Position numbers and translations under genes: made by a program
NCBI RefSeq assembly: GCF_947166265.1
Contig: NZ_CAMVDO010000018.1
Location: forward strand, 1,093 to 65,092
Reading direction: 5' to 3'
Origin: an uncultured Fibrobacter sp.
GTDB taxonomy: Bacteria > Fibrobacterota > Fibrobacteria > Fibrobacterales > Fibrobacteraceae
DNA length: 64,000 bases
Part shown: positions 20,088 through 61,464 of the stretch, piece after piece
How the letters are laid out: every line of letters starts with the position of its first letter
Position numbering within the stretch: the stretch's first letter is position 1
Notes under the pieces: model-generated
Told to the model about the DNA's origin: nothing
The model's database searches: none
What the model saw: only the letters and a program-made list of their open reading frames with translations

Positions 20088-21083
20088 TTACTCAGAGTCC
20101 TTCACACAACGGACGGAGTAGCCCATGTCTTTACTACTGTCATTCAATGTCGCATTATCGTGACGATAGTAGAATAATGACATTTGATATGCCCAGTTAT
20201 CATTTCTGACTGTAGAGCTCCAAAAGTGCGCATACTCGGATTCCTCACCATAATATCCATTATAGAAATAAGTGGAGATATCCCTTTTGCCCGCAGGAAG
20301 CGCTGAAAAAGAATAGGAATCATCCCCATTCCCGTTAAAAGTCCAATCCGTAGTAGACTTGAGCATTCTTCCAGCCTTATTGTCAGAGGTATATTCCGTA
20401 ATGGAGTCATCCACGGCTACAATCAAGTTTTCCCATTCTGACTTGCTGGGTAAATGCCATCCCTTTGGACAGGCTCCACGAACAAAGTCTGCACCAAGAT
20501 CACATTTGTGTCCGTATCCGCATTCTTCCAAGGTCTTTCCGACCGCAGCACTCCACAGGTACAAGCGGCCATATTTATCACAATTTTCGAATTTATCTCT
20601 ATAACAAAAACTGTTCTCTGTCCTATAATTTAAATTCTCCGCCATCCACACTTCCGAATAATTCGTTCCGACAGGGGCAATCGTGGTTGTCTTGTAGTTT
20701 CGACCATCGCGTAGGTCGGTCAATATGTTAGCAGACGCGTCGTAGATACTGCCATCGCTGCTGGAAGATGCTGTTTCGGCCATATCGGAACTTGATGAAG
20801 ATTTTGGCTCCCCACTCGATGAAGAACTTTTTGCACTCTTCGGAGTGACAGAAGAACTTGATTTTTCATTGCCGCTAGATTGAGCATCATTGGATGCCTC
20901 GCGACTGTCGCTGGACCCGTCGGTCACTTCGGCTGGCTCAGTGACCTTGGCACTGCTGCTCAGGGCACTTGTTTCGCCGTCATCACCACCCGCCGATGAA
21001 GAGTCATCGCAAGCGGAAAGGGCGAACCCGAGCACCCCCGCAAGGGCACAGACCGTAAACATTTTCGCGAATGTATTTTTCAT
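20088..21083 (-). CDS. FISUMP lipoprotein
   Basis: MKNTFAK leader, lipobox ALSAC, Ser-rich linker, FISUMP domain ending SVRCVKDSE. Confidence 0.9.
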   Translation of the reverse strand: MKNTFAKMFTVCALAGVLGFALSACDDSSSAGGDDGETSALSSSAKVTEPAEVTDGSSDSREASNDAQSSGNEKSSSSVTPKSAKSSSSSGEPKSSSSSDMAETASSSSDGSIYDASANILTDLRDGRNYKTTTIAPVGTNYSEVWMAENLNYRTENSFCYRDKFENCDKYGRLYLWSAAVGKTLEECGYGHKCDLGADFVRGACPKGWHLPSKSEWENLIVAVDDSITEYTSDNKAGRMLKSTTDWTFNGNGDDSYSFSALPAGKRDISTYFYNGYYGEESEYAHFWSSTVRNDNWAYQMSLFYYRHDNATLNDSSKDMGYSVRCVKDSE

Positions 21084-21101
21084 AGCAAAACCTTTTGGAA
21101 T

Positions 21102-22271
21102 TTATTCAGAATCCTTGACGCAACGGACGGAGTACCCTTCTCTCTTGTTGTTCGCTCCGTAGCCCACGCCGAGGCCTTCGAGAGCCCAGTTGACGCCTTG
21201 GCACATCGCTTCGCCGCTACCGAAATTAGTGGCCGTCCACAAAGAGGCGTTGAAGCCCTCATCGTAGAAATAGCCATTGTGGTATCTGAAACCGGCGGAG
21301 AGCTCAGAGAACCCGTACTTGTCGGTTCCGTTGCCACCACTGTACCATCCGCTGGTGGATTTCAACAACAGGCCGCCAGTGTTGGAACCACCGATGTAGG
21401 TGTGCAGGGTGCTGAACTCCTGTTCCGTCGGTACATGCCAGCCCTCTGGGCAAATGCCACGGTGTGGACTGTTTGGGTTACATCTCGAACCAAGGGAGCC
21501 TTCCGTGAGATTGGAATAGCCGCACGTGGTTCTTGCATTTTCGATGAACTGGGCTGCACTATCCATCACGGCACTCCAAGTGTAAAGTCGACCGTACTTG
21601 TCGCAGTTGGAAACCTTGTTCTCGTAGCACCAGCTGGTGGAATCAGAGGTATTTTCTTTTGATCTGAACTTCACACCAGTGTAAGCATAATTCAAGTTCT
21701 GGGCCATCCATATCTGATCTCCGATTTTAACCGTCTTATAGACTTGTCCATCGCGTTCATCGGTAAACTCGCCATAATTAATGTCCGGATTCAAGTAATC
21801 CCAGGCGGTTTTGCTAGACCCCTCGACATCGCTCGGGGTGACACTCGAAGAACTAGAGTTGCTGGACTTGGTCGATGTTCCTGCCGAAGAAGGATTGCCC
21901 TTGCTGTCGCTGGAGTCGTCGGTCACTTCGGCGGGATCGTTGGACTTGCTATCGCTCGACTTGTCACTCGATGAAGAGAAATCGCAGTCCATCTTCTCAA
22001 TGAGAGTCCCGATGACCCAGCCATTGTTACCATCGCACACAGCCATGTCATGGTATTCCGTCAGGTAGGTGGCGACACACTTCTGACTCTTGCCGCAGTC
22101 GTAGTCCGACAGTTCCATGAAAGTCTCGATGGTGTCAGGAATTCCACCACGAGTGCTGCCGCTACCGCCCTCACCACCCGCCGACGACGACAAATCGTCA
22201 CAAGCGGAAAGGGCGAAGAATGCCGCGAGCACCGCCACCCACAAGAAACCAAGACCCTTGACACACTTCAT
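21102..22271 (-). CDS. FISUMP lipoprotein
   Basis: Start moved to MKCVKG; lipobox ALSAC; GGIPDT..DCGKSQKC module; FISUMP domain. Confidence 0.9.
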   Translation of the reverse strand: MKCVKGLGFLWVAVLAAFFALSACDDLSSSAGGEGGSGSTRGGIPDTIETFMELSDYDCGKSQKCVATYLTEYHDMAVCDGNNGWVIGTLIEKMDCDFSSSSDKSSDSKSNDPAEVTDDSSDSKGNPSSAGTSTKSSNSSSSSVTPSDVEGSSKTAWDYLNPDINYGEFTDERDGQVYKTVKIGDQIWMAQNLNYAYTGVKFRSKENTSDSTSWCYENKVSNCDKYGRLYTWSAVMDSAAQFIENARTTCGYSNLTEGSLGSRCNPNSPHRGICPEGWHVPTEQEFSTLHTYIGGSNTGGLLLKSTSGWYSGGNGTDKYGFSELSAGFRYHNGYFYDEGFNASLWTATNFGSGEAMCQGVNWALEGLGVGYGANNKREGYSVRCVKDSE

Positions 22272-22355
22272 ACCATTATCTCCTGTAAAAATTTTCACCA
22301 CCCACAAACCAAGCAATGTGAAATATGGAATGTGGAATGATTGTTTATCGGCGGG

Positions 22356-23483
22356 TTAGTCAGAGTCCTTAACGCAACGGACAGAAAAGCCCATGTACAT
22401 GTAATTGCCTGCTTCGTCCCAGCCCACAACGTTATTGGGGTACAAGCGCACGCCATACACAGTATCATCGAACATGACAGAACTCCAGAAGCACGCCGTC
22501 TTGCCAACACTCACGAAGGAGCCTCTGCCATAAAGACCTGCCGGCAACGCGGAAAAACCGAAGTCATCATCACCGTTACCGTCGCTAAGCCACCCGCTCC
22601 GGGACTTAAACTTATTCCCTACCGCCGTGGAACCATCGCTCACCGCCGTGAACAGAGTATCCCATTCGCTTTTTTGCGGCAAGTGCCAGCCGCTAGGACA
22701 AATTCCTTTGACAATACCATTCAGGGCAGAACACATACTGCCATAACCACAATCTTGCGGATTGACCGCATCGGTCGCGAGTTTCACCGAGTCGATGGCC
22801 GCCGCCCAAGTATATAGACGGCCGTACTTGGCACAGTTGGCAGGGTCGTTGTCGTAGCACCAGCTAGTAGAATCGGAGATGTAAACATTATTGTAATAGG
22901 AAAAGTTATAGGGAACATCGATGTAGGCATAATTCAGGTTCTGTGCCATCCAAACCTGATCTCCGATTTTAACCGTCTTATAGACTTGTCCATCACGTTC
23001 ATCGGTAAACTCTCCATAATCGATGTCCGGATTCAAGTAATCCCAGGCGGTTTTCATTTCTTCGCTAGACGAAGACACCTCCTTGCCCGCAGAGCTGCTT
23101 GACTTTACGTCATTTCCAGATGTATTCGAATTGCTGGACTTGGTCGATGTTCCTGCCGAAGAAGGATTGCCCTTGCTGTCGCTGGAGTCGTCGGTCACTT
23201 CGGCGGGATCGTTGGACTTGCTATCGCTGGACTTGGCGTCGCTATCCTTATCAGTGACCTTGCCGCTGCTGGAGATTGCTTCGTCCTTATCGTTGGAACG
23301 AGAATCACTGGATTCTTCGCGGCTATCGCCGCTCAGAATGACGTTATTGTCATCGTCACCCGCCGACGAAGAATCGTCACAGGCGGAAAGGGCAAAGATT
23401 GCCGCCAACAAGAAGATGATTAGAGATTGCTTCCCCTGAAACAAGTTCAGGGTCGCAATGACACGCTGGAAAGACTTCTTCAT
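22356..23483 (-). CDS. FISUMP lipoprotein
   Basis: Lipobox ALSAC; Ser/Asp-rich linker; FISUMP domain ending SVRCVKDSD. Confidence 0.9.
   Translation of the reverse strand: MKKSFQRVIATLNLFQGKQSLIIFLLAAIFALSACDDSSSAGDDDNNVILSGDSREESSDSRSNDKDEAISSSGKVTDKDSDAKSSDSKSNDPAEVTDDSSDSKGNPSSAGTSTKSSNSNTSGNDVKSSSSAGKEVSSSSEEMKTAWDYLNPDIDYGEFTDERDGQVYKTVKIGDQVWMAQNLNYAYIDVPYNFSYYNNVYISDSTSWCYDNDPANCAKYGRLYTWAAAIDSVKLATDAVNPQDCGYGSMCSALNGIVKGICPSGWHLPQKSEWDTLFTAVSDGSTAVGNKFKSRSGWLSDGNGDDDFGFSALPAGLYGRGSFVSVGKTACFWSSVMFDDTVYGVRLYPNNVVGWDEAGNYMYMGFSVRCVKDSD
23424..23462. repeat. REP-like element inside signal-peptide coding sequence
   Basis: AGATTGCTTC-CCCTGAAACAAGTTCAGGG-TCGCAATGAC; both 10-bp ends are identical to those of the intergenic element at 60497-60532. 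Confidence 0.75.
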
Positions 23484-23637
23484 AAGAACATCCCCGTCTA
23501 TAGTTTATCTTGTTAAATATAGGTAATGCCCCTGCCAAAGTCCATACCCCCCCCATTGTAAATTTTAAGAAACAAGATAAAGGTTCAGAATAACGCAGAA
23601 AAACAACTTTTTCAAGGTTTTCTATCAGAAATTTTCT

Positions 23638-23660
23638 ATATGACTCAAGTTGAGACATAT
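23638..23660. promoter_or_regulatory. 23-bp palindrome, copy 4 (ATATGACTCA-AGT-TGAGACATAT)
   Basis: Symmetry extends to TCT/AGA on the flanks; between the ATPase stop and the FISUMP start. Confidence 0.75.
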
Positions 23661-23665
23661 AGAGT

Positions 23666-23680
23666 TATAACTTGCCAAAT
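23666..23680. repeat. 15-bp inverted repeat, left arm (TATAACTTGCCAAAT)
   Basis: Exact reverse complement at 25164-25178; the pair encloses the ATPase gene. Confidence 0.75.
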
Positions 23681-23689
23681 GTAGGCATT

Positions 23690-25120
23690 TTATGGTAGAT
23701 TTGGCGAATTATACAAGACGTCCAAAGTAATTGATTTTGGAATCTGCCTGGCGCAGGAATTGGGTTTTAGACCGAGCGATGTCACGAAGGTAAGCATCGG
23801 TGACTTGCGGGTCTTAGAGGATTCCTTGAACAGCTTGACTTTTTCAAGGAGTTCCGTCAAGTAATGCTGCGTGACTTCGTAGGGGCTGGTCGAAAACTTC
23901 ATTTCACAGATGTTGATGACGTTGTCGATGCGGTCGATCAGAAGGTCGAATTGTGCGCCGTCTTTCCCCGTATATATCCAGCTACAAGGGGCACTTTCTA
24001 TTCCAGAGATTCCGAGTGCGTTCAGGATTTGCGGATAATGCTGAAGGCACAGCATTTCGAATGCGTAGCCGCACCAACTGTTGTATTCAGGCTTACCCTG
24101 GATTTGCAGCCATTGGTTGCGGCGACCCTTCGCCCGTTTCGCGAGGAACTTGAAATAGAAAAGCGTGTAGAAATCGACGAGTTGAATCAGTTCGTCTTTG
24201 GTCTTCTTGCCAAAGGGACTATAACGCCTAATGAATCCGCAATTTTCAAGATCGTCCAAGGCCTTGGACACGCCCCCGCTACTTTCGACTGAAAGTTCCT
24301 TGATTAACGTGTTCCTGGTTATCCCCTTTTTCTTTTGAGCAAGAACTTCTACGATGGCAATGTATTTTTCGGAATTGCGGAACAACGCGTGATACAAGTT
24401 GTGAAATTCGTTGCGGAGTTCGCCATCTTCGCCGAACAAAAGTCTGTCCACATTCTGTGCAAGGCTTTCGCCTTTGTCCAGGAGTTTCAAGTAATACGGA
24501 ATCCCCCCAAAAACCATGTAGAACTGTGCGATTTCAAAACGGTCCATGGTGAAATTTTTTGCCTTCAAAAATTCTTCGCATTCGCCAAGGGTGAACGGAG
24601 AAAGTTTTATCTGGTGCGTTACGCGGTTATGCAGACCACCCTTGTTGTTGATGAGCTTGTTCATCATCCACGACGTGGCAGAACCACAGACAATCAACTT
24701 TATGGTCGGGTCATCGGAGGCCCACGAATTCCAGAAATGTTCCAGGGCGCTTACAAAGTCAGACCGTGCGGTATCAAACCACGGCAATTCATCGATGAAA
24801 ATGATTTTCTTGGTTTTATGCAATTTCGATAGTTCGTCGCGCAAGAGATTGAACGCGTCAAACCAATTTTTGACGGTTGCCTTCTTTGAAAAATATTGCG
24901 AAAAGGCATCCGTAAAATTCTGCAATTGCTTTTTGAGATCGGAATTGGCCAACCCCGTCATGTAAAAAGAAAAGTTTTTTTGGAAAAGGCTCTTCACGAG
25001 ATAAGTCTTGCCGACTCGCCTACGACCATAGACAGCGACAAATTCAGCTTCGTCACTATCGATGAACCTGTTCAACAGGGATATTTCGCGTTTTCTGCCA
25101 ACAATCAGTTTTTCGGACAT
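23690..25120 (-). CDS. AAA/P-loop ATPase with wHTH and C-terminal PD-(D/E)xK-like domain, paralog of 12293-13717
   Basis: IVGRKRE, YGRRRVGKT, IFIDELPW, AQFDLLIDR...ICEMKF. Confidence 0.85.
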   Translation of the reverse strand: MSEKLIVGRKREISLLNRFIDSDEAEFVAVYGRRRVGKTYLVKSLFQKNFSFYMTGLANSDLKKQLQNFTDAFSQYFSKKATVKNWFDAFNLLRDELSKLHKTKKIIFIDELPWFDTARSDFVSALEHFWNSWASDDPTIKLIVCGSATSWMMNKLINNKGGLHNRVTHQIKLSPFTLGECEEFLKAKNFTMDRFEIAQFYMVFGGIPYYLKLLDKGESLAQNVDRLLFGEDGELRNEFHNLYHALFRNSEKYIAIVEVLAQKKKGITRNTLIKELSVESSGGVSKALDDLENCGFIRRYSPFGKKTKDELIQLVDFYTLFYFKFLAKRAKGRRNQWLQIQGKPEYNSWCGYAFEMLCLQHYPQILNALGISGIESAPCSWIYTGKDGAQFDLLIDRIDNVINICEMKFSTSPYEVTQHYLTELLEKVKLFKESSKTRKSPMLTFVTSLGLKPNSCARQIPKSITLDVLYNSPNLP

Positions 25121-25163
25121 AGGACCTCCCTATACTTTACCAAATATATATAAAAACACATGG

Positions 25164-25178
25164 ATTTGGCAAGTTATA
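25164..25178. repeat. 15-bp inverted repeat, right arm (ATTTGGCAAGTTATA), overlapping a TTGCCA -35-like hexamer
   Basis: Reverse complement of 23666-23680; partial repeat at 25216-25228. Confidence 0.7.
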
Positions 25179-25279
25179 CGGCATAATTCACCAAAAGTAT
25201 CTTTTTTATGATAGATTTGGCAAGATAACGCAGTTTTTAAGGCAGTATTGCCATTCGGATTTGATAATCCGTCGGCGGG

Positions 25280-26542
25280 TTAGTCTGAGTCCTTGACGCA
25301 ACGGACGGAGAAGCCGTTTTTCTTCCACTCGCCCCACAAAAGGGCGGAATCGTCGTCGTGTTGCAATCTCAAACAGTAGGATTTGTCGCTACCGTACACA
25401 CTAGAAGACCAGAAGAACGTACCAACGCCCTTTGACCTAAAAAATTCTCCGATGTACATAAAGCCTGCAGGGAGGGCTGAGAAACCAGAGGCATTCGTTC
25501 CCGACGTAGAAGTCGAATATTCCTTCCACCCGTCCGCAGTCTTCAACTCTACACTAGCACCAAGGTAACTCCAGTAAGTAGTTAGGTCTTCAACGCCGCT
25601 CGCTATTGGTTCTACCAGTTTCTTCCACTCTTCCTTTGTAGGCAAATGCCAGCCTTTGGGACAAACGCCCTGCGTACCTTCGTTGCCAATGTCGCAATTG
25701 TAGTGATAGCCACAATTGACCTTATTCATTGCAACTTCCCAGGTGTACAGGCGACCGTACCTGGAGCAGTTCGCAGCAAACTCTTCTTCCGTCAAAATTC
25801 TTTTACTGATTTCATCAAGGGCACCGTCACCATAGCAGCCGCTCCATGCATACCTACCCAAGCTGGACACATCGCCCGGATCGTAATTCAAGTTCTGGGC
25901 CATCCATATCTGATCTCCGATTTTAACCGTCTTATAGACTTGTCCATCGCGTTCATCGGTAAACTCGCCATAATTAATGTCCGGATTCAAGTAATCCCAG
26001 GCGGTTTTCATTTCTTCGCTAGACGAAGACACCTCCTTGCCCGCAGAGCTGCTTGACTTTACGTCATTTCCAGATGTATTCGAATTGCTGGACTTGGTCG
26101 ATGTTCCTGCCGAAGAAGGATTGTCCTTGCTGTCGCTGGAGTCGTCGGTCACTTCGGCGGGATCGTTGGACTTGCTGTCGCTGGACTTGTCGGTCACTTC
26201 GGCGGGATCGTTGGACTTGCTATCGCTGGACTTGGCACTCGATGAAGAGAAATCGCAGTCCATCTTCTCGATGAGAGTCCCGATGACCCAGCCGTTGTTA
26301 CCATCACACACAGCCATGTCATGGTATTCCGTCAGATAGGTGGCAACGCACTTCTGACTCTTGCCGCAGTCGTAATCCGACAGTTCCATGAATGTCTCGA
26401 CGGTGTCGGGAATTCCACCACGGTTCCCGCCACTACCATTATCACCCCCCGCTGACGAAGAATCGTCGCAGGCGGAAAGGGCGAAACCGAGCACCCCCGC
26501 AAGGGCGCAGACCGTAAACTTTTTCGCGAATGTGTTTTTCAT
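25280..26542 (-). CDS. FISUMP lipoprotein
   Basis: MKNTFAK leader, GGIPDT module, 15-aa internal duplication, FISUMP domain. Confidence 0.9.
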   Translation of the reverse strand: MKNTFAKKFTVCALAGVLGFALSACDDSSSAGGDNGSGGNRGGIPDTVETFMELSDYDCGKSQKCVATYLTEYHDMAVCDGNNGWVIGTLIEKMDCDFSSSSAKSSDSKSNDPAEVTDKSSDSKSNDPAEVTDDSSDSKDNPSSAGTSTKSSNSNTSGNDVKSSSSAGKEVSSSSEEMKTAWDYLNPDINYGEFTDERDGQVYKTVKIGDQIWMAQNLNYDPGDVSSLGRYAWSGCYGDGALDEISKRILTEEEFAANCSRYGRLYTWEVAMNKVNCGYHYNCDIGNEGTQGVCPKGWHLPTKEEWKKLVEPIASGVEDLTTYWSYLGASVELKTADGWKEYSTSTSGTNASGFSALPAGFMYIGEFFRSKGVGTFFWSSSVYGSDKSYCLRLQHDDDSALLWGEWKKNGFSVRCVKDSD

Positions 26543-26560
26543 GGGGAAACCTTTTGAGAT

Positions 26561-27721
26561 TTAGTCAGAATCCTTGAGACAACGGACGCTCACTGCAATG
26601 ACCTTACTGCGATTAACCATGAGTGCACTCGGACGTCCATAATACATATCCACGCCATATACATAATAGCCATCAATTTCGGAAGAACTCCAAAAGTCTG
26701 TATAATCGCCAGCATTGACAAAACCATCGGTTGGTCTCGAGCCCACAGGCAACGCCGCAAAACCGTATGCGTCCGTACCGTTACGATTATTAGTCCATCC
26801 CGTCTGAGATTTGAGAGCCTTACCCGCATCATCTGTTTCGCCAACTTCATCAATCAAAACATTCCATTCGGTTGTATCAGGCAGATGCCACCCCATCGGA
26901 CATAAGCCCTGAACTTTTGAAGGTAGAGAGCAGGTCTTTTTTCTGCCACAGTCCACTCCATTGCCGCTGTCGTAAAGTGCGATTGAGTCAATCGCCGCGG
27001 CCCAGGTGTAAAGCCGACCGCCATACGCACATTTTTCTTCATTGTATTCATAGCACCAATTACGTTCCAACAAACTAGGCGTTTTAATACTGTCGGCATA
27101 GTTCAAATTCTGTGCCATCCATATCTGCTCGCCAATCTGAGCAGTCTTATAAACCTGACCATCGCGTTCATCGAGAATTTCGCCATACTTACCCGTTTCA
27201 AGGAATTCCTGGTTCAGGTATTCTGTCGTAACACACTTATACTTCGTGCAATCGTATGTTCCAGACGGCATGACCTTTGCTTCGGCGTAACTTTTCGGAA
27301 CCTCGCCTTTACTAAACGAAGACTCGACCTTGCTCGCAGAACTGTTGCTTGACTTTGTGCCATTTCCAGACGAATTGGAGTTGCTTGACTTGGTCGATGT
27401 TCCTGCCGAAGAAGGGCTATCCTTGCTGTCGCTGGAGTTGACACTCGATGAAGAGAAGTCGCAGTCCATCTTCTCGATGAGAGTCCCGATGACCCAGCCG
27501 TTGTTACCATCGCACACAGCCATGTCATGGTATTCCGTCAGGTAGGTGGCAACGCACTTCTGACTCTTGCCGCAGTCATAGTCCGACAGTTCCATGAATG
27601 TCTCGACGGTGTCAGGAATTCCACCACGGTTTCCGCCACTACCATTATCACCACTTGCCGACGACGAGTCATCACAGGCGGAAAGGACGAAGAATGCCAA
27701 CAGTAAAATAAATTTTTTCAT
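26561..27721 (-). CDS. FISUMP lipoprotein
   Basis: Start MKKFI (or MGVF at 27733); lipobox VLSAC; GGIPDT module; YDCTKYKCVTTE module; FISUMP domain. Confidence 0.9.
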   Translation of the reverse strand: MKKFILLLAFFVLSACDDSSSASGDNGSGGNRGGIPDTVETFMELSDYDCGKSQKCVATYLTEYHDMAVCDGNNGWVIGTLIEKMDCDFSSSSVNSSDSKDSPSSAGTSTKSSNSNSSGNGTKSSNSSASKVESSFSKGEVPKSYAEAKVMPSGTYDCTKYKCVTTEYLNQEFLETGKYGEILDERDGQVYKTAQIGEQIWMAQNLNYADSIKTPSLLERNWCYEYNEEKCAYGGRLYTWAAAIDSIALYDSGNGVDCGRKKTCSLPSKVQGLCPMGWHLPDTTEWNVLIDEVGETDDAGKALKSQTGWTNNRNGTDAYGFAALPVGSRPTDGFVNAGDYTDFWSSSEIDGYYVYGVDMYYGRPSALMVNRSKVIAVSVRCLKDSD

Positions 27722-27753
27722 AAAAACACCCATTACAAAATTTTACCCCTTAG

Positions 27754-29580
27754 TCAATCTTTCAAGCAGCGGAGATTATACGAACTCTGTTGCATAGCAA
27801 CCGCATTAGAATATGAATCCATTGTAGAAGTGCCTTTTTTCAAAGCCAAGTCGAATCTCATATTTATACTGATTCCTGCATCATCCCTTGAAGATGTCAG
27901 AAGAACAGCCTCGGCTCCACTATTAACCCCAGTAGTGAAAGAACTGGTTCCACCCGGCAAAAGAGCAAATCCATATTCATCCTTAAAGCCATTGACCTGC
28001 ATTACTTCGATATCCGTCTTGCCGCTCGATTGAAAATAACCCATGACAAACGATCCTTCCGTATCCCATGCTGGCGGTGCAAACAACATGCTTGAATGCG
28101 ACGCATCCACACCGGTCGTTTCAAATAGTTTTTCGAATTCAGCAAGGCTTGGGATATGCCATCCATCTGGACATTTTCCGCGGACAGGTTCGCCTAAATC
28201 TGTAGAATCAACAACCGCACTTAACCAGGAATAGTAGCAACCATACGTACCATTCGATGTACAACCATATTCCAGATTTTTTGCCATCCATGTCTGGTCG
28301 CCTATGGTTGTAATCGGATATTTTTTCCCGTCCCTTGAGTCTGTCAAGATTTCATAGGCATCCATATTTTGCTTTACCCCGTCGGCCATCCATTCCTTTT
28401 CCGTGCATGTATACAACAATACCCAAAACTTACTGACGGATTGTGTTACGGACTCCCCTTCATTATATGAACCACACCCCTTTTTAAGTTCTATTTCAGA
28501 TGAGGAGGCTTCCCTAAATGCTCCGGATTCGCATACATAAAAAGAACTCGTATCGACAGCACCCGCTAAAACACTTCCGTCAGCGTCGCACTTGAGGCCA
28601 TGGGTGTTCTGCTCCAAGGCTGTCGCCTTTCGCCACATTCCATTATCGCAAATAAAGTAGACCCCATCATTTTTACTGTAAGTATTTCGGGCAGCAACAA
28701 TCTTCTTATCGAAGTTGTCAGAACACTCGCCCAGTTTGTACTCTGCGGCAACAAAGGAGTTTATGTAGGATTCAAAGTCTGGGATTTTTTCAACGCCACC
28801 ACTTTCCTGGATATTCTTTCGCACTTGTACGAAATCCAGGTCCACTGCAAAGTCTGCCGCATCCGCACGATTATCCAAATCGTTCCATTCTCCGTCCTTT
28901 TTAAAGTCAAGAGCGAACATCTGTAGGCGATAATCAAAACCAGTTTCCGATTCATTCAGCATAAGGATCGTCATAGCCAGCAGTGCCGCTCCCCCATCGG
29001 TATCGGAGTAAACGTTCAGTTTGTTCAATTCGTCAAAGTTTCCTTCAAAGCCAAAGGTCTTGAAAAGTTCCTGTTCGGCCTGCTTTTTGGCATCATAGAT
29101 AGACGCTCCATAATCCACCAACTCTTCGATACGGCTATAAACCAAGGATGTTGCAACATTGATATTCGCACTGTTTTTTTGCTTTAGGTTTATGACGCCC
29201 TTTAGCGATGATTCCGATGAAGAAATGGAGCCTGTAACGATATTGTAAAATTTACCAGTTACCTTTGCATAACCATAGTTGGTTTCCGAGGAGACTTCCT
29301 TTATGGAATATGCCCCATCATTGTCGGCAACCTCACCGGTGAATTCCTCAAAGACCATAATGAAGGTTGAATCTAACCCTTGAATGACAATGTCGCTTCC
29401 TTTGGCAAAGGGCCCCACTTGTGCATATCCCGAAACATCTCCAGAAAAGGGTTCGTTGGCATCCTTGGCAGATGTTTCGTAGGGAGAACTAGAGGAATCG
29501 CTTCCGCAGGCGGAAAGGGCGACACCGAGCACCCCCGCAAGGGCGCAGACCGTAAACATTTTCGCGAATGTGTTTTTCAT
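27754..29580 (-). CDS. FISUMP lipoprotein with large N-terminal domain (G.AQ.GPF type)
   Basis: MKNTFAK leader, lipobox ALSAC; N-terminal domain homologous to that of 53380-57324; C-terminal FISUMP ending LRCLKD. Confidence 0.85.
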   Translation of the reverse strand: MKNTFAKMFTVCALAGVLGVALSACGSDSSSSPYETSAKDANEPFSGDVSGYAQVGPFAKGSDIVIQGLDSTFIMVFEEFTGEVADNDGAYSIKEVSSETNYGYAKVTGKFYNIVTGSISSSESSLKGVINLKQKNSANINVATSLVYSRIEELVDYGASIYDAKKQAEQELFKTFGFEGNFDELNKLNVYSDTDGGAALLAMTILMLNESETGFDYRLQMFALDFKKDGEWNDLDNRADAADFAVDLDFVQVRKNIQESGGVEKIPDFESYINSFVAAEYKLGECSDNFDKKIVAARNTYSKNDGVYFICDNGMWRKATALEQNTHGLKCDADGSVLAGAVDTSSFYVCESGAFREASSSEIELKKGCGSYNEGESVTQSVSKFWVLLYTCTEKEWMADGVKQNMDAYEILTDSRDGKKYPITTIGDQTWMAKNLEYGCTSNGTYGCYYSWLSAVVDSTDLGEPVRGKCPDGWHIPSLAEFEKLFETTGVDASHSSMLFAPPAWDTEGSFVMGYFQSSGKTDIEVMQVNGFKDEYGFALLPGGTSSFTTGVNSGAEAVLLTSSRDDAGISINMRFDLALKKGTSTMDSYSNAVAMQQSSYNLRCLKD

Positions 29581-29598
29581 AGGGAAATCTTTTGAAAT

Positions 29599-30747
29599 TT
29601 AGTCAGAGTCCTTGACGCAACGGACGGAGAAGCCGTTGTATCCTTCAAATTCGTACAAGTACGCCCTACTATCGCTCCAGTATAGCATCGCGCTGTAAAC
29701 AAGATTGACATTCCACTTGGTAGAACTCCAAAAGCCAGTCTTGGAGCCGACTTTGTCGAAAGTTCCATAGATATTTTGTCCAGCAGGCAACGCTGAAAAT
29801 CCATAGGCATCACTACGGTTGCCATTGGCACCAAACCAGCCATTCTGCGACTTTAGCTTTGTTCCAGCCGTAGATTTTCCGCCAACCGCATTAAACAAAG
29901 CATTCCATTCAGAACTATCAGGCAAATGCCAACCGCTTGGGCAAATACCTTGAACAGGCAAGGTCGGCGAGCATATCGCACCATGTCCACAGCCAGTTTT
30001 TATGGAATCCATAGCCGCACTCCATTTATAGAAACGCCCAGTCACCTCGCAGTTAGCCGTCACATTGTCGTAGCACCGACTTTTGCCAAGAAGACTCGGA
30101 GTCGCTATACTGTCAGCATAGTTCAGATTCTGAGCCATCCAAACCTGTTCGCCAATCTTTACAGTCTTATAGACCTGACCATCGCGTTCATCAATTATCG
30201 AATCATACTGAATTTCAGGATTGAGATAGGCTTCTTTCGGAACACTCCAATCAAAGTTCCCCGAACTCGATGAAGGAATGATGACACTCGATGAGGATTC
30301 TTCCTTGCTCATGGAACTGCTACTTCGCTTTTCACTTGAAGATGATTTCACCGATGAACTAGACTTATCCTTGTTGCTGCTGGATGAGTCATCGGACTTT
30401 ACAGAACTGGAACTCTTAGAGTCGGACGAGTTCCTTGTTTCTTTCGCGGAACTGCTGGAGTTATCGGTCACTTCGGCTGGTTCGACGGACTTGCTGTCGC
30501 TGGACTTGGCGTCGCTATCCTTATCAGTGACCTTGGCACTGCTGGAGATTGCTTCGTCCTTATCGTTGGAACGAGAATCACTGGATTCTTCGCGGCTATC
30601 GCCGCTCAGAATGACGTTATTGTCATCGTCACCCGCCGATGAAGAGTCGTCGCAAGCGGAAAGGGCGAAGAACGCCGCGAATATAAAGACGGTTAAGAGT
30701 CGGCCCTTCGGCAAGCTCAGGGGCCTTGTAGCAATGACATTTTTCAT
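29599..30747 (-). CDS. FISUMP lipoprotein
   Basis: Start MKNVIA (or MDVF at 30759); lipobox ALSAC; long Ser-rich linker; FISUMP domain. Confidence 0.9.
   Translation of the reverse strand: MKNVIATRPLSLPKGRLLTVFIFAAFFALSACDDSSSAGDDDNNVILSGDSREESSDSRSNDKDEAISSSAKVTDKDSDAKSSDSKSVEPAEVTDNSSSSAKETRNSSDSKSSSSVKSDDSSSSNKDKSSSSVKSSSSEKRSSSSMSKEESSSSVIIPSSSSGNFDWSVPKEAYLNPEIQYDSIIDERDGQVYKTVKIGEQVWMAQNLNYADSIATPSLLGKSRCYDNVTANCEVTGRFYKWSAAMDSIKTGCGHGAICSPTLPVQGICPSGWHLPDSSEWNALFNAVGGKSTAGTKLKSQNGWFGANGNRSDAYGFSALPAGQNIYGTFDKVGSKTGFWSSTKWNVNLVYSAMLYWSDSRAYLYEFEGYNGFSVRCVKDSD
30702..30725. repeat. REP-like hairpin inside signal-peptide coding sequence
   Basis: GGCCCTTCGGCAAGCTCAGGGGCC; matches intergenic CCCTGAGCCTGCCGAAGGG (about 13852) and CACTTCGGCAAGCTCAGTG (57721). 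Confidence 0.7.
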
Positions 30748-30864
30748 AAAAACATCCATTATGATAATTTACCTCCTAAAAATAACAAAGCACCCCCGTG
30801 CATCGCAAGCCTTCAATGCGCAGAAAAACGAACTTTTTATGCCGCGTCGGGCCGAAAAATTTCT

Positions 30865-53379: not shown

Positions 53380-56300
53380 CTAGTCCTTTACGCAGCGAAC
53401 AGAAAACCCACGATACTTGCTGTCGCGGGACAAGTCACCGTCGCCGAGATCCATATGGTATGCGTTGAAATTATTATAGTCCGTAGAACTCCAAAAGAAC
53501 GCGAAGTAGCCTCTGTAATCGAAATAGCTACCGTCCTTGTATCCAGCAGGCAAAGCGGAAAAGCCGAATGCATTTTCGTTAGTAGAGGCGTTCGTAGAGG
53601 ACCAACCACTTGTCGATTTGAGCATTCTTCCAGCCACTGATTTTCCTCCTACGGCAGAGAGTAGGCTTTCCCACTCATCTTTATTTGGTAAATGCCAGCC
53701 TTCGGGGCAAATGCCCTGAACCGGACCAGTCAGGCCGCAGTTTTTGCCATTACCGCAATTTAGCGGATTGTCCGCATCAGACGCAAGCTTCACCGAGTCA
53801 ATAGCTGCCGCCCAGGAATAAAGGCGACCATATTTTGTGCAATTATTCCAATCGTTATTATAGCACCAATTTCCTTTTCGCATACTCGGGTAGGTTGTAC
53901 TGTCTGAATAGTTTAGGTTTTCTGCCATCCAGGTTTGTGTCCCTATGGTCACGATTTTGTAGGTCTTGAGGTCCCTTTCATCAATCATTGATCCATATTC
54001 ACCAACAAACTCAATTTTTGCTTTCCACAAGCTATTATTACACAGATATAAAGAATCTTGCGTCGCAGATAGGTGTTTTCTTATTTCACTCCTCGTTGTG
54101 TAGCTGACACATCCTTTATTAAGTGATATTTCTAGAGAATTCGCAATTCTGAATGTATCTGCATCACACACATACTTATTTTCGGCAACAACTTCTCCAT
54201 CTACAATTGCACCATCTTTTGTACAAACTTTACCATAAGTATCAGAAGACAGAGTATCCGCAAGACCCCAATAGTAGTCATACTCCCACTCGCCTTGGTT
54301 ATAATAGCTTTTTCGCTTACATATGTAGCACGTATCACCAGATTTCCCTACCGTTTTATATCTTTTTTGGGTACATGCTCCAAGATCATTTTCAATTCGA
54401 CCTCGACTTGCGCGCCACACGTTATTTTCCCAAACATAATACTTATCAGAATTTACATTTCCTTTTTTCACGTCACCATCTTTTCCGGAGCTCCAGCCGT
54501 AAGTATCATACTCCTGTTCTGTAGATTCTACCCATCCTTTCGCTTTACATGTATAATAAATGGCTCCTGATTTAGCAACCACATTAATTCGACTTTTGAC
54601 ACATGCCCCTATATTATTTTCAATGTCGCTAGCAGATGCTCGCCATTTACCATCAACAGAGACATAATAATTGCCAAGTTCGCCCTTTCTAACTTCGCCA
54701 TCTGCCGAGGCAGACCAACCTAGAGTTTCATAAGCAAGCAAATCAACGCTGTTCCAAATTTTATTCCGGCAAACATAATACTCACTATTAAATGTACCCT
54801 TATCATTCTCCCGACTAGTCACACACACGCCCAAATTATACTCAATTTCATTAGCGCTTGCTCTCCATACTCCGTTTTCATAAACATAATGGTTAGTTGC
54901 AACAACGCTCCCTTCTTTCATTTCGCCTTCGGTTCCGGCTTTCCAACCATAGGTATCATACTCAATGGCAGTCGCTTCAGTCCAACTTCCAGATTTGCAG
55001 ATATAATACACATCGTTCAACTTTTCAACAACCCCTTTGTTTGAAGCGGTGCAATACCCAAGGCCATATTCTTCTGCGGTTATCTGTTTCCAGCTCTTAT
55101 TTTCGCAGATGTAATACTTGCCATTTTGCAAATGCTTTTCGCCGTCTTTCTTCGTCACACATGCGCCAAACTCATATTCCATATCGTCAGCTGCAGCACG
55201 CCATGCGCCATCTACATACACGTAGTGGTTTGTTGCAGTGACGGAGCCTTCTTTCACTTCGCCTTCGGTTCCAGCCTTCCAGCCGTAGGTATCATATTCA
55301 AGAGCAGTAGCAATTCTCCAGTTGTTCGATTTGCAGATGTAATAGGCAGTCACGGGCTTCGCAACTTCACCTTCGCGGCTTTCGACGCAGGCGCCGAGAA
55401 TTTCTTCAACGGCGTTTTTGGCTGCACGCCAGGCACCATTTTCATAGACATAGAACTTATCCTTGTTAACCTTACCCGCGCGAACTTCGCCATCATCACC
55501 CTTGCCGAACCCGTCGGTATCGTATTCAAGCACAGTCGCAGTACGCCAGCTATTGTCTTCGCAGATAAAGTACGTCGTATCAATTTTTGCAATCTCCCCT
55601 GTACGTTTTGAGGTGCAGAGTCCCAAGGCAGTCTCGTTCTTCGCGACAGTCCACTTGCCATCTTCAAACACATAATACGTAGCCGTCACATCGCCTTTCT
55701 TGACATCGCCTTCTTTACCGTCTTTCCACTGGTAGGTATCCTTTTCGATATCCGTTGCCTTCTGCCAGCTGGTTCCCTTACAGATGTAGTGGACATTGTA
55801 GTTCTTGCTCTTTGAGTTCTTGTTTTGCGCAATTACGCCGGACCTTGTCGAAGAGCAGCCGCCCAGTTCGTAGGCATTGTTCCAGTAAATAGTCAGGTAG
55901 TTTTCGTAGGCAGGAATGTCAAGAATGTTCCAACTCTTCACGTTCGCACGGATCGAACCGCCGTCAAAGCCTTCCGCCCAGTCCGCCATGTCCGCTTTCA
56001 TCTGCCCGTTGTTCCATTCTCCGTCCTCAGCCAAATCGCTCTTGAAACTGCCAATCGCATTTTGGATTTCGGTTTCAGTCCTGTCGCCAATGAAAAGCAA
56101 CGAAATCGCCATCAGGGTGGCGTTCTCCCCATAACTTTCGCTGGTAGAAGGCACGAATGTCTTCAAGTCCTCAGAATACTCCACCGAAGTGGCAAAACCG
56201 AGCGCCGTCATAATTTCAAAGTCGGCCTGTTTCTTGGCCGCAAAAACGCTATAGCCATCGTTGACAAGCTTTGCGGCGCGATCATATTCCAAGTGTGTAA

Positions 56301-57324
56301 GCAGATTGATATTCACTTCCGTTCGTTTGCTCAAATCGGTCAGCACACGGAGCGTCATGGAATCCTTGGAATATTCGCCACTGACTTCGTTGCGCCACAG
56401 TCCACGAACTTCAAGCACCGCGTAAGGATAAACAAGATTCACCTTTGGAATCACAAAGTCGCCCTTGTTGCTGGAAATTTCGTCATTGTACACGCGACCA
56501 GAATACACGAGGGAATCGTTGCGCAGAAGGACTTCGCGGAGTTGTAGCGGAGAGTTGAACTTGAACGGTCCCTTCTGTGCCGCACCAAGAATGGAAGCGT
56601 TCTTGACAATGTATCCATCGGCGGTCTCCGGATTCCACTTTTCCGTATCGCAGGCGAAGAAGACGGAGTCTTTCTTGACTAAGACACGTTGTTTTGCATT
56701 GCCTGCATTACACCTTGGCAAATCTTCCTTTGTCTTGACAATTTCGTAACCCAAATAGACGGTATCCTTAATCCAACCATTCGCCTTGCAAGTGTAATAG
56801 GTGGAATCGGCTAACACTAACGCGCGAAGCCCAAAATCAACGGAATCGCATGGGCCCAAAGCATTCTTTGTTTTCACCTCGATGTAAGTTGCCTTCGCAG
56901 AAGAACTGGAATTACAGTCACCGCAAAGCGGGTCATCGACAACGGAGCTGCTTGAGCCTGCGACGGGGTCCACAACATTAGAATCACCCGGCACCTCAAC
57001 GGAGTCTGCCCCAGACGAAATTGCAATGCTAGAACTTGATTCAGGTCGCGTCGTGATGTCAATCCAATCATTGTTCAAGCATAGGTACTCAATGGACTTG
57101 TCCAGTACGAGAACCGTGTCACCTTTGCGGTCAGTGGTACAGGAACCGAGGTCATAGATGGTCGGAACCTCGCGTGGAGGAATTTCAACAGCATTATCAT
57201 CACTACCGTCATCACCACAAGCGAACAGAACCGCACAGCTAGAGATTGCCGCACTTGCTTTCAGCAGGTTCACAATGACACTTTTGCTAGATGCGAATGT
57301 ATTTGCAATTCTATTCCAAACCAT
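53380..57324 (-). CDS. Large FISUMP lipoprotein with G.AQ.GPF domain and six ~75-aa Cys/Trp repeats
   Basis: Start MVWN with GGAGG RBS; lipobox LFAC; repeats EYDTYGW..G..GEV..G.V...YV...G.WRA...LG.C...YYIC...W; C-terminal FISUMP. Confidence 0.88.
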   Translation of the reverse strand: MVWNRIANTFASSKSVIVNLLKASAAISSCAVLFACGDDGSDDNAVEIPPREVPTIYDLGSCTTDRKGDTVLVLDKSIEYLCLNNDWIDITTRPESSSSIAISSGADSVEVPGDSNVVDPVAGSSSSVVDDPLCGDCNSSSSAKATYIEVKTKNALGPCDSVDFGLRALVLADSTYYTCKANGWIKDTVYLGYEIVKTKEDLPRCNAGNAKQRVLVKKDSVFFACDTEKWNPETADGYIVKNASILGAAQKGPFKFNSPLQLREVLLRNDSLVYSGRVYNDEISSNKGDFVIPKVNLVYPYAVLEVRGLWRNEVSGEYSKDSMTLRVLTDLSKRTEVNINLLTHLEYDRAAKLVNDGYSVFAAKKQADFEIMTALGFATSVEYSEDLKTFVPSTSESYGENATLMAISLLFIGDRTETEIQNAIGSFKSDLAEDGEWNNGQMKADMADWAEGFDGGSIRANVKSWNILDIPAYENYLTIYWNNAYELGGCSSTRSGVIAQNKNSKSKNYNVHYICKGTSWQKATDIEKDTYQWKDGKEGDVKKGDVTATYYVFEDGKWTVAKNETALGLCTSKRTGEIAKIDTTYFICEDNSWRTATVLEYDTDGFGKGDDGEVRAGKVNKDKFYVYENGAWRAAKNAVEEILGACVESREGEVAKPVTAYYICKSNNWRIATALEYDTYGWKAGTEGEVKEGSVTATNHYVYVDGAWRAAADDMEYEFGACVTKKDGEKHLQNGKYYICENKSWKQITAEEYGLGYCTASNKGVVEKLNDVYYICKSGSWTEATAIEYDTYGWKAGTEGEMKEGSVVATNHYVYENGVWRASANEIEYNLGVCVTSRENDKGTFNSEYYVCRNKIWNSVDLLAYETLGWSASADGEVRKGELGNYYVSVDGKWRASASDIENNIGACVKSRINVVAKSGAIYYTCKAKGWVESTEQEYDTYGWSSGKDGDVKKGNVNSDKYYVWENNVWRASRGRIENDLGACTQKRYKTVGKSGDTCYICKRKSYYNQGEWEYDYYWGLADTLSSDTYGKVCTKDGAIVDGEVVAENKYVCDADTFRIANSLEISLNKGCVSYTTRSEIRKHLSATQDSLYLCNNSLWKAKIEFVGEYGSMIDERDLKTYKIVTIGTQTWMAENLNYSDSTTYPSMRKGNWCYNNDWNNCTKYGRLYSWAAAIDSVKLASDADNPLNCGNGKNCGLTGPVQGICPEGWHLPNKDEWESLLSAVGGKSVAGRMLKSTSGWSSTNASTNENAFGFSALPAGYKDGSYFDYRGYFAFFWSSTDYNNFNAYHMDLGDGDLSRDSKYRGFSVRCVKD

Positions 57325-59680: not shown

Positions 59681-60361
59681 TCATTCTTTTATGCATCTAA
59701 CAGCCTGCCAAAAACTTGTATTGCCAACTTCTGCAATTCGTTCAATACTCAATGATCTCATAAGAATCGAATTTTTCATAGTAGTTGACGAATACACCGC
59801 TCCCATATGAAGACGATCACAATCCGTTATATTTAGACAAAAACCAGATGGAAGAGCAGCAAATCCACAATCATTAGAACCAACGCCCCTATTTTCATTC
59901 CATAGACCATTGATTTTGAGTTGAGATGCGGCCTCTTCTTTATCACTGCTCATATTATTCAAAAGTTTATTAAAATCTTCCTCACTTGGCATACGCCATC
60001 CTTTGGGGCAAATCGCAGGAATTATGTCAACATCAAAAGTTTCATTTTGATTTCCATTTAAACGCAAGGAATACAACCTACCATAAATTTCACAATTTTC
60101 AGGATTGTTGTCATAGCACATGCTATACTCTACATTATAATTCAAATTTTTTGCCATCCAAACCTGGTCTCCAATGGTAGTATACTCATACACCTGACCA
60201 TCACGAGCATCTACAAATGTCCCTCGATTGGGTTCACCGTATAAATTTGTACCGGTATCTGGGCACACTTCGCTAGCACTCCATTTATCATCCGCATCCG
60301 TCGTGCAGGCGATCAACACAAACTGAAAGACAATCACAATTAGTAGTATATTTCTTTTCAC
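59681..60361 (-). CDS. Small FISUMP lipoprotein
   Basis: GTG start, lipobox LIAC, DARDGQVY.YTTIGDQVWMAKNLNY, CPKGWRMP, AVRCIKE; AT-rich. Confidence 0.88.
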   Translation of the reverse strand: MKRNILLIVIVFQFVLIACTTDADDKWSASEVCPDTGTNLYGEPNRGTFVDARDGQVYEYTTIGDQVWMAKNLNYNVEYSMCYDNNPENCEIYGRLYSLRLNGNQNETFDVDIIPAICPKGWRMPSEEDFNKLLNNMSSDKEEAASQLKINGLWNENRGVGSNDCGFAALPSGFCLNITDCDRLHMGAVYSSTTMKNSILMRSLSIERIAEVGNTSFWQAVRCIKE

Positions 60362-60454: not shown

Positions 60455-60488
60455 AAAAAGAGAACTGCCGTTAAGCAGTCCTCTTTTT
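60455..60488. terminator. Terminator downstream of sdhCAB
   Basis: AAAAAGAG-A-ACTGC-cgttaa-GCAGT-C-CTCTTTTT. Confidence 0.7.
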
Positions 60489-60496
60489 AATGCTTT

Positions 60497-60687
60497 AGAT
60501 TGCTTCGTCGCCTTACGGCTCCTCGCAATGACGTGTTAATCGGCGACGCTCACCCCTCAAAGGGAGCGGAGCGACCGACCTCACACCTCATACCTATTAG
60601 TCGTTCGCCAAGTTGCTACGCAACTTGCCGCAAGACTCGCGGCGCCTTGGTCATGAGCAAGCGAGCTTGCTCGCGACGCTCGGCTTG
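60497..60687. repeat. REP-like cluster downstream of sdhB
   Basis: AGATTGCTTC..TCGCAATGAC (60497-60532), CTCAAAG..CGACCTCA..CCTCATACCT, AAGTTGC-tac-GCAACTT, GAGCAAGCGAGCTTGCTC. Confidence 0.7.
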
Positions 60688-61464
60688 CTAGTCCTTGCCA
60701 TAAACCTTTTCGGCGTAGGTCACGGTGGCGCCGAGGTATTCGCGGTTCATCTTGGCGATGTAATCCACGGTGATACCCTTCGGGCATGCGGCCTGGCATT
60801 CGTAAAGGTTCGTGCAGTTGCCGAAGCCTTCCTTGTCCATCTGGGCGACCATGGCCAAGACGCGCTTCTTTGCCTCGACCTTGCCCTGCGGCAAGAAGCT
60901 GAGGTGAGAAACCTTCGCAGAAACGAAGAGCATAGCGGATGCGTTCTTACAGGCGGCCACGCAGGCACCGCAACCAATGCAAGCGGCAGCGTCGAAGGCG
61001 CGGTCGGCATCAGCCTTGGGAACCGGAATCGTGGAAGCTTCAGGAGCGGCACCGGTGTTGACGGAAACGAAACCACCGGCAGCGATGATGCGGTCGAAAG
61101 CGGTACGGTCCACGGCGCAGTCACGGATAACCGGGAATGCGGCGGCGCGCCACGGTTCGATCACGATGGTGTCGCCATCCTTGAACTTGCGCATGTGAAG
61201 CTGGCAAGTGGTGGTCGCATGGTCAGGACCGTGCGGCATACCGTTGATGACGAGAGAGCACATGCCACAGATACCTTCGCGGCAGTCGTGGTCGAAGGCG
61301 AAGCCTTCCTTGCCCTGCTTCATCTGTTCTTCGTTCACGATGTCCAGCATTTCCAGGAAGGACATGTCCGGAGAAACATCGTTGATCTTGACAGTTTCGA
61401 ACTGTCCCTTGGTCTTGGCATCCTTCTGACGCCAAATCTTCAAAGTCAAATTCAGTCCGCTCAT
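60688..61464 (-). CDS. sdhB: Succinate dehydrogenase/fumarate reductase Fe-S subunit
   Basis: [12 protein letters not shown] (2Fe-2S), [24 protein letters not shown]. Confidence 0.96.

Follow-up and report, generated by a model that had tools for sequence, protein, structure and literature searches.

A 39-bp segment at 23424-23462 of a 64-kb window of an uncultured Fibrobacter sp. genome (the whole 64,000-nt stretch of contig NZ_CAMVDO010000018.1 that we analysed, to which all coordinates refer) is a copy of a short hairpin repeat and lies in frame within the predicted signal peptide of a lipoprotein of the FISUMP family (Fibrobacter succinogenes major paralogous domain, PF09603/TIGR02145). 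We consider it probable that this segment belongs, as a solo copy, to the kind of oriented hairpin repeat called NTS in Neisseria and Ssn-related motif (SRM) in other bacteria, and that it landed in a FISUMP leader, was tolerated there and was then inherited and passed on together with the leader. Elsewhere among bacteria, the same repeat brackets small genes coding for GIY-YIG proteins. Repeats of this kind were described in 2025, and palindromic inserts that keep the reading frame have a precedent in Rickettsia; what is unusual here is the location in a leader.

A hairpin repeat in frame within a FISUMP leader

The element, the gene that contains it and its intergenic counterpart are laid out as follows:

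23424..23462, minus strand: canonical hairpin repeat in the FISUMP leader, GTCATTGCGA-CCCTGAACTTGTTTCAGGG-GAAGCAATCT, encoding VIATLNLFQGKQS (signal peptide residues 8-20)
22356..23483, minus strand: FISUMP lipoprotein gene (375 aa), ATG at 23483, with a GGGGA Shine-Dalgarno-like motif before the ATG that is kept in orthologues
23379..23483, minus strand: signal peptide coding region (35 codons), n-region with K2, K3, R7 and K18, h-region LIIFLLAAIFA, lipobox LSAC with Cys35
60497..60532, minus strand: canonical non-coding copy, GTCATTGCGA-GGAGCCGTAAGGCGAC-GAAGCAATCT, lying 3' of sdhB/frdB, with a FISUMP gene 136 nt downstream

The product of the open reading frame (ORF) 22356-23483 matches PF09603 (Fib_succ_major) with its C-terminal part (residues 171-372, E 1.8e-28), and the proteins closest to it come from Fibrobacter isolates and rumen metagenomes, no identical protein being on record. 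The precursor begins with MKKSFQR-VIATLNLFQGKQS-LIIFLLAAIFALSAC-DDSSS…, in which the leader MKKSFQRVIATLNLFQGKQS-LIIFLLAAIFA-LSAC agrees with the sequence criteria for a lipoprotein signal peptide (lipobox [LVI][ASTVI][GAS]C), predicting processing by signal peptidase II (SPII). With the repeat in place, this leader has a net charge of +4, a hydrophobic core of 11 residues and an LSAC lipobox. As the original prediction, made from the DNA letters alone, had proposed, the element lies in frame within the leader. It is read in the sense orientation, its 39 nt forming 13 codons (8-20) that fall between the basic n-region and the hydrophobic core. Metatranscriptome contigs span the element, the ATG and ~90 nt upstream, a coverage to which DNA carry-over may contribute.

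The same prediction held, and the sequence bears it out in every particular, that the leader element shares both of its 10-bp ends with an intergenic palindrome. Read on the plus strand, 23424-23462 is AGATTGCTTC-CCCTGAAACAAGTTCAGGG-TCGCAATGAC (39 nt) and 60497-60532 is AGATTGCTTC-GTCGCCTTACGGCTCC-TCGCAATGAC (36 nt), identical ends thereby enclosing different hairpin cores. A two-ended pattern consisting of both 10-mers placed 8-38 nt apart matched exactly these 2 sites in the window, compared to 0 matches in 100 dinucleotide-preserving shuffles of the window. On the minus strand both copies follow the plan GTC-ATTGC-GA-[inner hairpin]-GAA-GCAAT-CT. Their predicted fold, alike for RNA and DNA, comprises an outer stem of 5 bp (ATTGC/GCAAT), a 2/3-nt internal loop (GA/GAA) and a variable inner hairpin, the minimum free energy (MFE) structure being ...(((((..(((…)))...))))).. 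in each case. Predicted folding energies were -15.9 kcal/mol as RNA (z -3.6) and -9.4 as DNA (z -3.9) for the leader copy, and -12.3 kcal/mol as RNA (z -2.6) for the intergenic copy. The forward strand of the conserved ends is free of stop codons in all three frames, and the reverse strand has a single one (TGA in TCGCAATGAC).

Metagenomes also delimit the intergenic copy. Contig depth rose 10-40 fold exactly across 60497-60534 in four rumen or gut metagenomes, a community-wide signal, and metagenome contigs diverged from the window sequence at 60496-98 and at 60532-35 into many heterogeneous flanks, confirming both the boundaries of this copy and its repeat nature. Shape by itself does not suffice to find the family, since any 5-bp stem with GA…GAA occurred 12 times in the window vs 8.8 in shuffles, which is no enrichment. 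No Rfam family reached its gathering score anywhere in the window, and a literature search by sequence string, at the DNA, RNA and peptide levels, turned up nothing but unrelated primers and siRNAs. A hammerhead or kink-turn reading of the GA/GAA loop was dropped on inspection, strand order and bulge size being a misfit.

The same repeat at GIY-YIG genes across bacteria

We scanned the exact two-ended pattern over 185,579 species genomes and obtained at least 120 loci, with 148 copies among the matches listed. These loci belong to Chloroflexota, Bacteroidota, Patescibacteria, Omnitrophota, Planctomycetota, Desulfobacterota, cyanobacteria, Rickettsiales, Bacillota and others; none of those listed is a Fibrobacter record. 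The cores of the 148 copies are 8-38 nt long and nearly all self-complementary, GGAGCGAAGCGAC and GGAGGAACGAC being the commonest, with a mean core MFE of -3.8 vs -2.0 kcal/mol for shuffled cores. The two-tier fold with outer stem and inner hairpin was present in 112/148 copies, inverted pairs or tandem arrays were frequent, and solo copies as well as head-to-head pairs are spread over the genomes. Clusters resembling bacterial interspersed mosaic elements (BIMEs), in the form of tandem arrays with a ~50-bp period or of alternating arrays, were seen in Chloroflexus, Caldatribacterium and an Elusimicrobiota metagenome-assembled genome (MAG) (L003 1372-1870, L085 22-668, L062 555-2200, L120 2143-2223), and one canonical copy lies in the Rickettsiaceae endosymbiont Candidatus Tisiphia (L074 2290-2325).

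When the ORFs of the 120 loci were clustered (n=2359), the sole small recurrent family abutting the repeat was a ~95-aa stand-alone GIY-YIG protein. In the loci selected through the element these ORFs are 95-102 aa long and match PF01541 only, and all five are enclosed in the same way: a forward copy precedes the ATG by 9-30 nt, and a reverse copy follows the stop codon at a distance of 1-7 nt. A sister subfamily with the ends GTCATTCTGA…GAAGAATC fills this flanking role in 2 of the 5 loci. Three GIY-YIG genes picked solely through a profile search with the protein, from Kamptonema and from MAGs of Dehalococcoidia and Xanthobacteraceae, each had several repeat copies around them, bringing the bracketed genes to 8/8 examined. 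Beyond PF01541, these ORFs had distant matches only, to NCBIfam TIGR01453 (below cut-off) and to the UPF0213 structures 1ZG2 and 1YWL of the PDB.

This arrangement is already on record for SsnA, a 94-aa single-domain GIY-YIG nuclease (cd10448) that binds an oriented hairpin repeat on single-stranded DNA (ssDNA), cuts a few bases upstream of it, and does not act on double-stranded DNA, on RNA or on the opposite strand (Chenal et al., Nat Commun 2025, PMC11893778). Its repeats are 20-50 nt hairpins, named NTS in Neisseria (CGTCATTCCCGCGMAVGCGGGAATCYRG, consensus CGTCATTCCCGCG..GCGGGAATC, overlapping dRS3, about half of whose copies are NTS) and SRM elsewhere; the 3 nt 5' of the palindrome govern cleavage and the C just 3' of it governs binding (PMC11893778). 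The ssn genes are flanked by the repeats much as insertion sequences are by their ends, and SRM copies number in the hundreds in some genomes (more than 300 in genomes that include Rickettsia) and cluster near surface-protein genes (PMC11893778).

The repeat described here shares several of these traits. Its two window copies are inverted hairpin repeats of 39 and 36 nt, and both read GTC-ATTGC…GCAAT-C, with GTC 5' and C 3' of the palindrome, as in the NTS and SRM, where GTC precedes an ATT…AAT palindrome that is followed by C. Both kinds of repeat occur in many phyla, solo copies of both cluster near surface-protein genes, and in both inverted copies stand on the two sides of a ~95-aa single-domain GIY-YIG gene; for our family this flanked gene of about 94 aa was found elsewhere, in genes classed by PF01541 only, and not within the window. 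Unlike the NTS and SRM, the present subfamily has a two-tier hairpin with an ATTGC/GCAAT outer stem, a GA/GAA loop and a free inner hairpin. The dRS3 repeat of Neisseria (ATTCCC-N8-GGGAAT) resembles it in its outermost bases, ATT…AAT, and in its occurrence at variable surface-protein loci, but has another stem sequence, is defined without oriented flanks and is confined to Neisseria.

Repeat-derived segments in FISUMP proteins and the readings they allow

The leader segment is shared with other FISUMP proteins. A VIAT(L/Q)NLFQGKQS leader (MKKSFQRVIATLNLFQGKQS…), here called type A, was present in 22 of the best 120 FISUMP matches, these 22 having an overall identity of 52-91%, and it is joined to ORFs of 250-639 aa. 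Fibrobacter sp. UWCM (L122) and a metagenome contig (L123) carry type A, and the positional orthologue of Fibrobacter sp. UWR3 (L124), which has the same upstream sequence and the same neighbouring ATPase gene, carries a second segment, type B. Type B occupies the same place in the leader of other homologues, including the chimera MRKSFQR-VIAPRSLSLPKGRLIT (P0024), and two proteins (P0003 and P0055) have a plain leader before the same mature N-terminus as the window gene. A metagenome scan anchored in the leader flanks retrieved 20 contigs with 31-61 nt between the anchors, 18 with a type A and 2 with a type B core. Sixteen of the 18 type A contigs are identical over 46 unconstrained bases, and variable sites amount to 2/39 nt in the element, 18/49 in the 5' untranslated region (UTR) and 13/45 in the h-region and lipobox, a low variability of the leader copy that hints at constraint on, or homogenisation of, the nucleotide sequence.

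The window gene contains two more segments of this kind:

23311..23342, minus strand: sister-subfamily copy in the mature N-terminal linker, GTCATTCTGA-GCGGCGATAGCCGC-GAAGAATC, in frame, encoding VILSGDSREES
23273..23308, minus strand: probable degenerate third copy in the same gene, right end GACGAAGCAATCT intact (…DKDEAIS), left end decayed; an intact linker counterpart exists in L123/L139

The outer stem of the former covaries on both sides (ATTCT/AGAAT), and the sister subfamily has 2 copies in the window vs 0 expected. Because the leader, linker and probable decayed copies all lie in this ORF, as many as 36 residues among the precursor's first 75 are apparently repeat-derived.

Further in-frame sense copies encode VIASE(A/T/V)KQS, HCEDCKDEAIS, HCEPKARQS and VILSGDSREES in the linkers and leaders of FISUMP proteins. 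Throughout 120 of these proteins we counted 28 sense vs 0 antisense copies, and the derived peptides span all three forward frames (VIA…KQS, SLRG…, HCE…EAIS). One leader (P0084) has both HCEPKARQS and VILEGRSPDRI, and several long leaders have (K/C)MSLRG… (among P0084, P0036, P0060, P0106 and P0120); these peptides resemble translations of the repeats in other frames and suggest that leader extensions derived from repeats have arisen recurrently in the family.

Copies were also sought in 232 kb of Fibrobacter-like DNA made up of the window and 24 loci. Canonical copies with four different cores were found there, namely the leader copy, a linker copy with the core GTCATTGCGAGGACTGTAAGGACGAAGCAATCT ('HCEDCKDEAIS'), a non-coding copy with GTCATTGCGAACCCCGAATAGGGGTGAAGCAATCA (L146, L149) and the non-coding copy of the window, and the sister subfamily was also present. 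The original prediction had staked itself on the element being multicopy in its own genome: at least four distinct canonical copies, two of them non-coding, bear this out in part, for Fibrobacter-like DNA, while the rise in depth speaks for the community as a whole.

The course of events that we favour begins in an ancestor of this Fibrobacter lineage, in which a solo copy would have landed, or arrived by recombination, in the sense orientation and in frame within the signal peptide of a FISUMP lipoprotein, behind the basic n-region and ahead of the hydrophobic core. The n-region would have tolerated the extra length, to which the insert adds a lysine; since the forward frames are stop-free and the n-region is length-tolerant, the precursor would have stayed a plausible SPII substrate and the copy would have been kept. 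From then on it would have been handed down, and would have moved among the tandem FISUMP paralogues, as part of the leader. The segment would owe its place to insertion and to tolerance by the export and lipidation machinery, and might act as an ssDNA target, as a recombination junction or as an mRNA hairpin.

Rickettsia palindromic elements (RPEs) are palindromic elements about 100-150 bp long that are inserted in frame into Rickettsia ORFs. They provide a fitting analogy, already drawn in the original prediction, as in both cases palindromic repeats are tolerated within genes and add a peptide segment without destroying the protein. The likeness is one of description, and the present repeat differs in being shorter and in sitting in the signal peptide and the low-complexity linkers of one paralogous lipoprotein family.

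Several results weigh against the assignment to the NTS/SRM kind and against a landing in the leader. No empty-site allele was found: a DNA pattern with 0-30 nt between the leader flanks matched 0 metagenome contigs, a leader stripped of the element, used as protein query, retrieved element-bearing proteins only, and metagenome contigs over the leader region showed no 39-nt skip. The leader site is hence fixed as occupied, and the insertion is an event that we infer rather than observe. The core of the leader copy itself is not multicopy, and other taxa may account for most of the depth peak over the intergenic copy. Because the contigs were chosen through fixed flanking anchors, the low variability of the leader element is only suggestive. 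Searches of the window and of the 232 kb of Fibrobacter-like DNA for a GIY-YIG/Ssn homologue (tblastn, five GIY-YIG queries) gave none (best E 0.24), and no Fibrobacter name appears among the 120 GIY-YIG profile matches listed of at least 8000, leaving a cognate enzyme in this organism unproven. Finally, the published SRM pattern HGTCWYN(0-2)YYVSBRHN(0-5)WNVSBRGN(0-2)RNCYNB, which recovered the NTS consensus as a positive control, matches 0/148 copies and 0 sites in the window, so that the assignment rests on architecture and on the conserved GTC and C, not on the published definition. The flanked GIY-YIG genes were likewise classed by PF01541, not by cd10448; the element is nonetheless taken to work like the Ssn-related repeats, and very probably belongs to them.

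These mismatches have a bearing of their own. The published search pattern misses a widespread subfamily, GTCATTGCGA…GAAGCAATCT, together with its sister GTCATTCTGA…GAAGAATC, and because a pan-bacterial subfamily escapes it, current SRM counts are probably too low. Such repeats can moreover ride in frame inside exported proteins, in the signal peptide and linkers of the largest Fibrobacter paralogous family. For gene annotation, the peptides VIA…KQS, SLRG…, HCE…EAIS and VILS…EES are to be read as repeat-derived, which bears on the origin of low-complexity linkers.

The leader segment is a real repeat-derived segment in frame, whose function there, and with it any exaptation, is unproven. The original prediction had suggested exaptation, with an mRNA structure or a recombination hotspot near the start codon as a possible effect. 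We regard it as unlikely that the copy has truly been exapted, whether as an mRNA hairpin at +22 to +60 tuning translation initiation or export coupling, as a peptide feature, or as a DNA junction for leader and linker shuffling. Such a role would agree with the near-invariance of the element over 18 independent contigs whose 5'UTR and h-region vary, with the stability of its RNA hairpin, with the coverage of the copy by metatranscriptome contigs and with the range of ORF lengths to which the type A leader is attached. It would also agree with chimeric leaders, in which the core changes precisely where the repeat has its left end (MKKSFQR followed by type B in P0024, L132 and L134; MKN followed by type B at window position 30738 and in L124). 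However, gene conversion or a recent spread could account for the conservation, a change that breaks the stem (CCCaGAA) is present in one contig, type B leaders persist despite the loss of the hairpin and of the right end, and plain-leader paralogues or orthologues with the same mature N-terminus exist (P0003, P0055).

Less probable still is a broader role, in which Ssn-type repeats would serve as in-frame, sense-only junction modules in FISUMP leaders and Ser-rich linkers, and the paralogues would diversify as their cassettes are shuffled through ssDNA hairpins or through cutting by an Ssn-like enzyme. This would be the coding-sequence counterpart of the NTS/dRS3 clusters around the surface-protein genes of Neisseria. 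If a Fibrobacter Ssn exists, FISUMP loci are a natural place to ask whether such repeats shape the recombination of surface-protein genes.

The original prediction had called the element a repetitive extragenic palindromic (REP) element, a label that we replace by the recently characterised system of Ssn GIY-YIG ssDNA nucleases and hairpin repeats. What holds of it is that the repeat is palindromic and multicopy, that its ends are conserved and that its core forms a hairpin of its own. It is highly improbable that the repeat is a classical REP/BIME palindrome generated and mobilised by a REP-associated tyrosine transposase (RAYT) of the IS200/IS605-like Y1 type. Like REPs, BIMEs and REPINs, it is short, palindromic and multicopy and often forms inverted pairs or doublets and arrays, and in both systems the proposed enzyme acts on single-stranded hairpins and has its own gene flanked by repeats. 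Yet no Y1-transposase family recurs among the 2359 ORFs, and the genes bracketed by the repeat code for GIY-YIG proteins rather than HUH Y1 transposases. Most REP families are confined to one species or genus; here 20 identical bases are kept across phyla. Coincidence or a shared leader motif, with the intergenic site as a chance resemblance or a decayed FISUMP leader fragment, might be suspected from there being just two exact copies in 64 kb, one of them upstream of a FISUMP gene, but is already refuted by the shuffles, by identical ends in at least 120 loci of unrelated phyla and by the intergenic core (GGAGCC-GTAA-GGCGAC), which is of the commonest pan-bacterial type (GGAGCG-AAG-CGAC) and not leader-like.

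Other copies and the FISUMP array

The remaining features of the window that relate to the repeat are:

30691..30738, minus strand: leader of paralogue 29599-30759, where a degenerate type B copy gives MKN-VIATRPLSLPKGRLLT-VFIF…LSAC, left end GTCATTGCtA, right end lost
30584..30615, minus strand: GTCATTCTGA…GAAGAATC copy in the linker of the same paralogue
57243..57279, minus strand: degenerate copy in the leader of a 1314-aa FISUMP lipoprotein (53380-57324), GTCATTGtGA-ACCTGCTGAAAGCAAGT-GcgGCAATCT, giving …SKS-VIVNLLKASAAIS-SCAVLFAC
60455..60490, no strand assigned: terminator-like G+C hairpin between A and T runs, read from the sequence; it adjoins the non-coding copy, which sits just upstream

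The type B segment at 30691-30738 forms no stable hairpin and holds the same position in the leader as the type A segment. Its core, CCCTGAGCTTGCCGAAGGG ('LSLPKG'; window 30700-30720, L124 10025-10065), resembles a hairpin core within long repeat copies of other phyla (e.g. L083 …CCCTGAGCCTGTCGAAGG…) and also 'SLSLSKG' in another FISUMP leader (P0116). The type A core CCCTGAACTTGTTTCAGGG looks like a derivative of such a core made into a perfect 7-bp stem. The copy at 57243-57279 is a weak match with 3 mismatches, inside the shuffle background for that number of mismatches.

The intergenic copy lies between an sdhB/frdB-like gene, coding for a succinate dehydrogenase/fumarate reductase Fe-S subunit (60688-61464, minus strand), and a gene for a 226-aa FISUMP protein (59681-60361, minus strand). 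Beside it, across the hairpin-like sequence CGCTCACCCCTCAAAGGGAGCGGAGCG at 60554-60591, contig depth was 2-4 fold over the flanks, possibly marking a second short repeat.

The gene with the leader copy is one of seven tandem FISUMP lipoprotein paralogues on the minus strand (20088-30759). All of their leaders end in …LSAC, six of them in …(F/V)(A/V)LSAC. Homologues show the same mature N-terminus behind different leaders (P0003 and P0055 compared to the window gene), so that leader swapping by recombination among FISUMP genes is suggested by their sequences. At least four leader cassettes can be told apart in the array, which is broken by an ATPase gene (PF01637, 23690-25120): MKNTFAK(M/K)FTVCALAGVLG(F/V)ALSAC, MKCVKGLGFLWVAVLAAFFALSAC, MKKFILLLAFFVLSAC and the leaders that bear the repeat. 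In three Fibrobacter loci, AbiEii-family toxin genes (PF08843) with a small upstream partner adjoin FISUMP arrays (L122 2524-3905, L123 8353-9719, L124 3224-4665 and 14814-15542), and a HepT-like/Polbeta pair is found at the start of L122.

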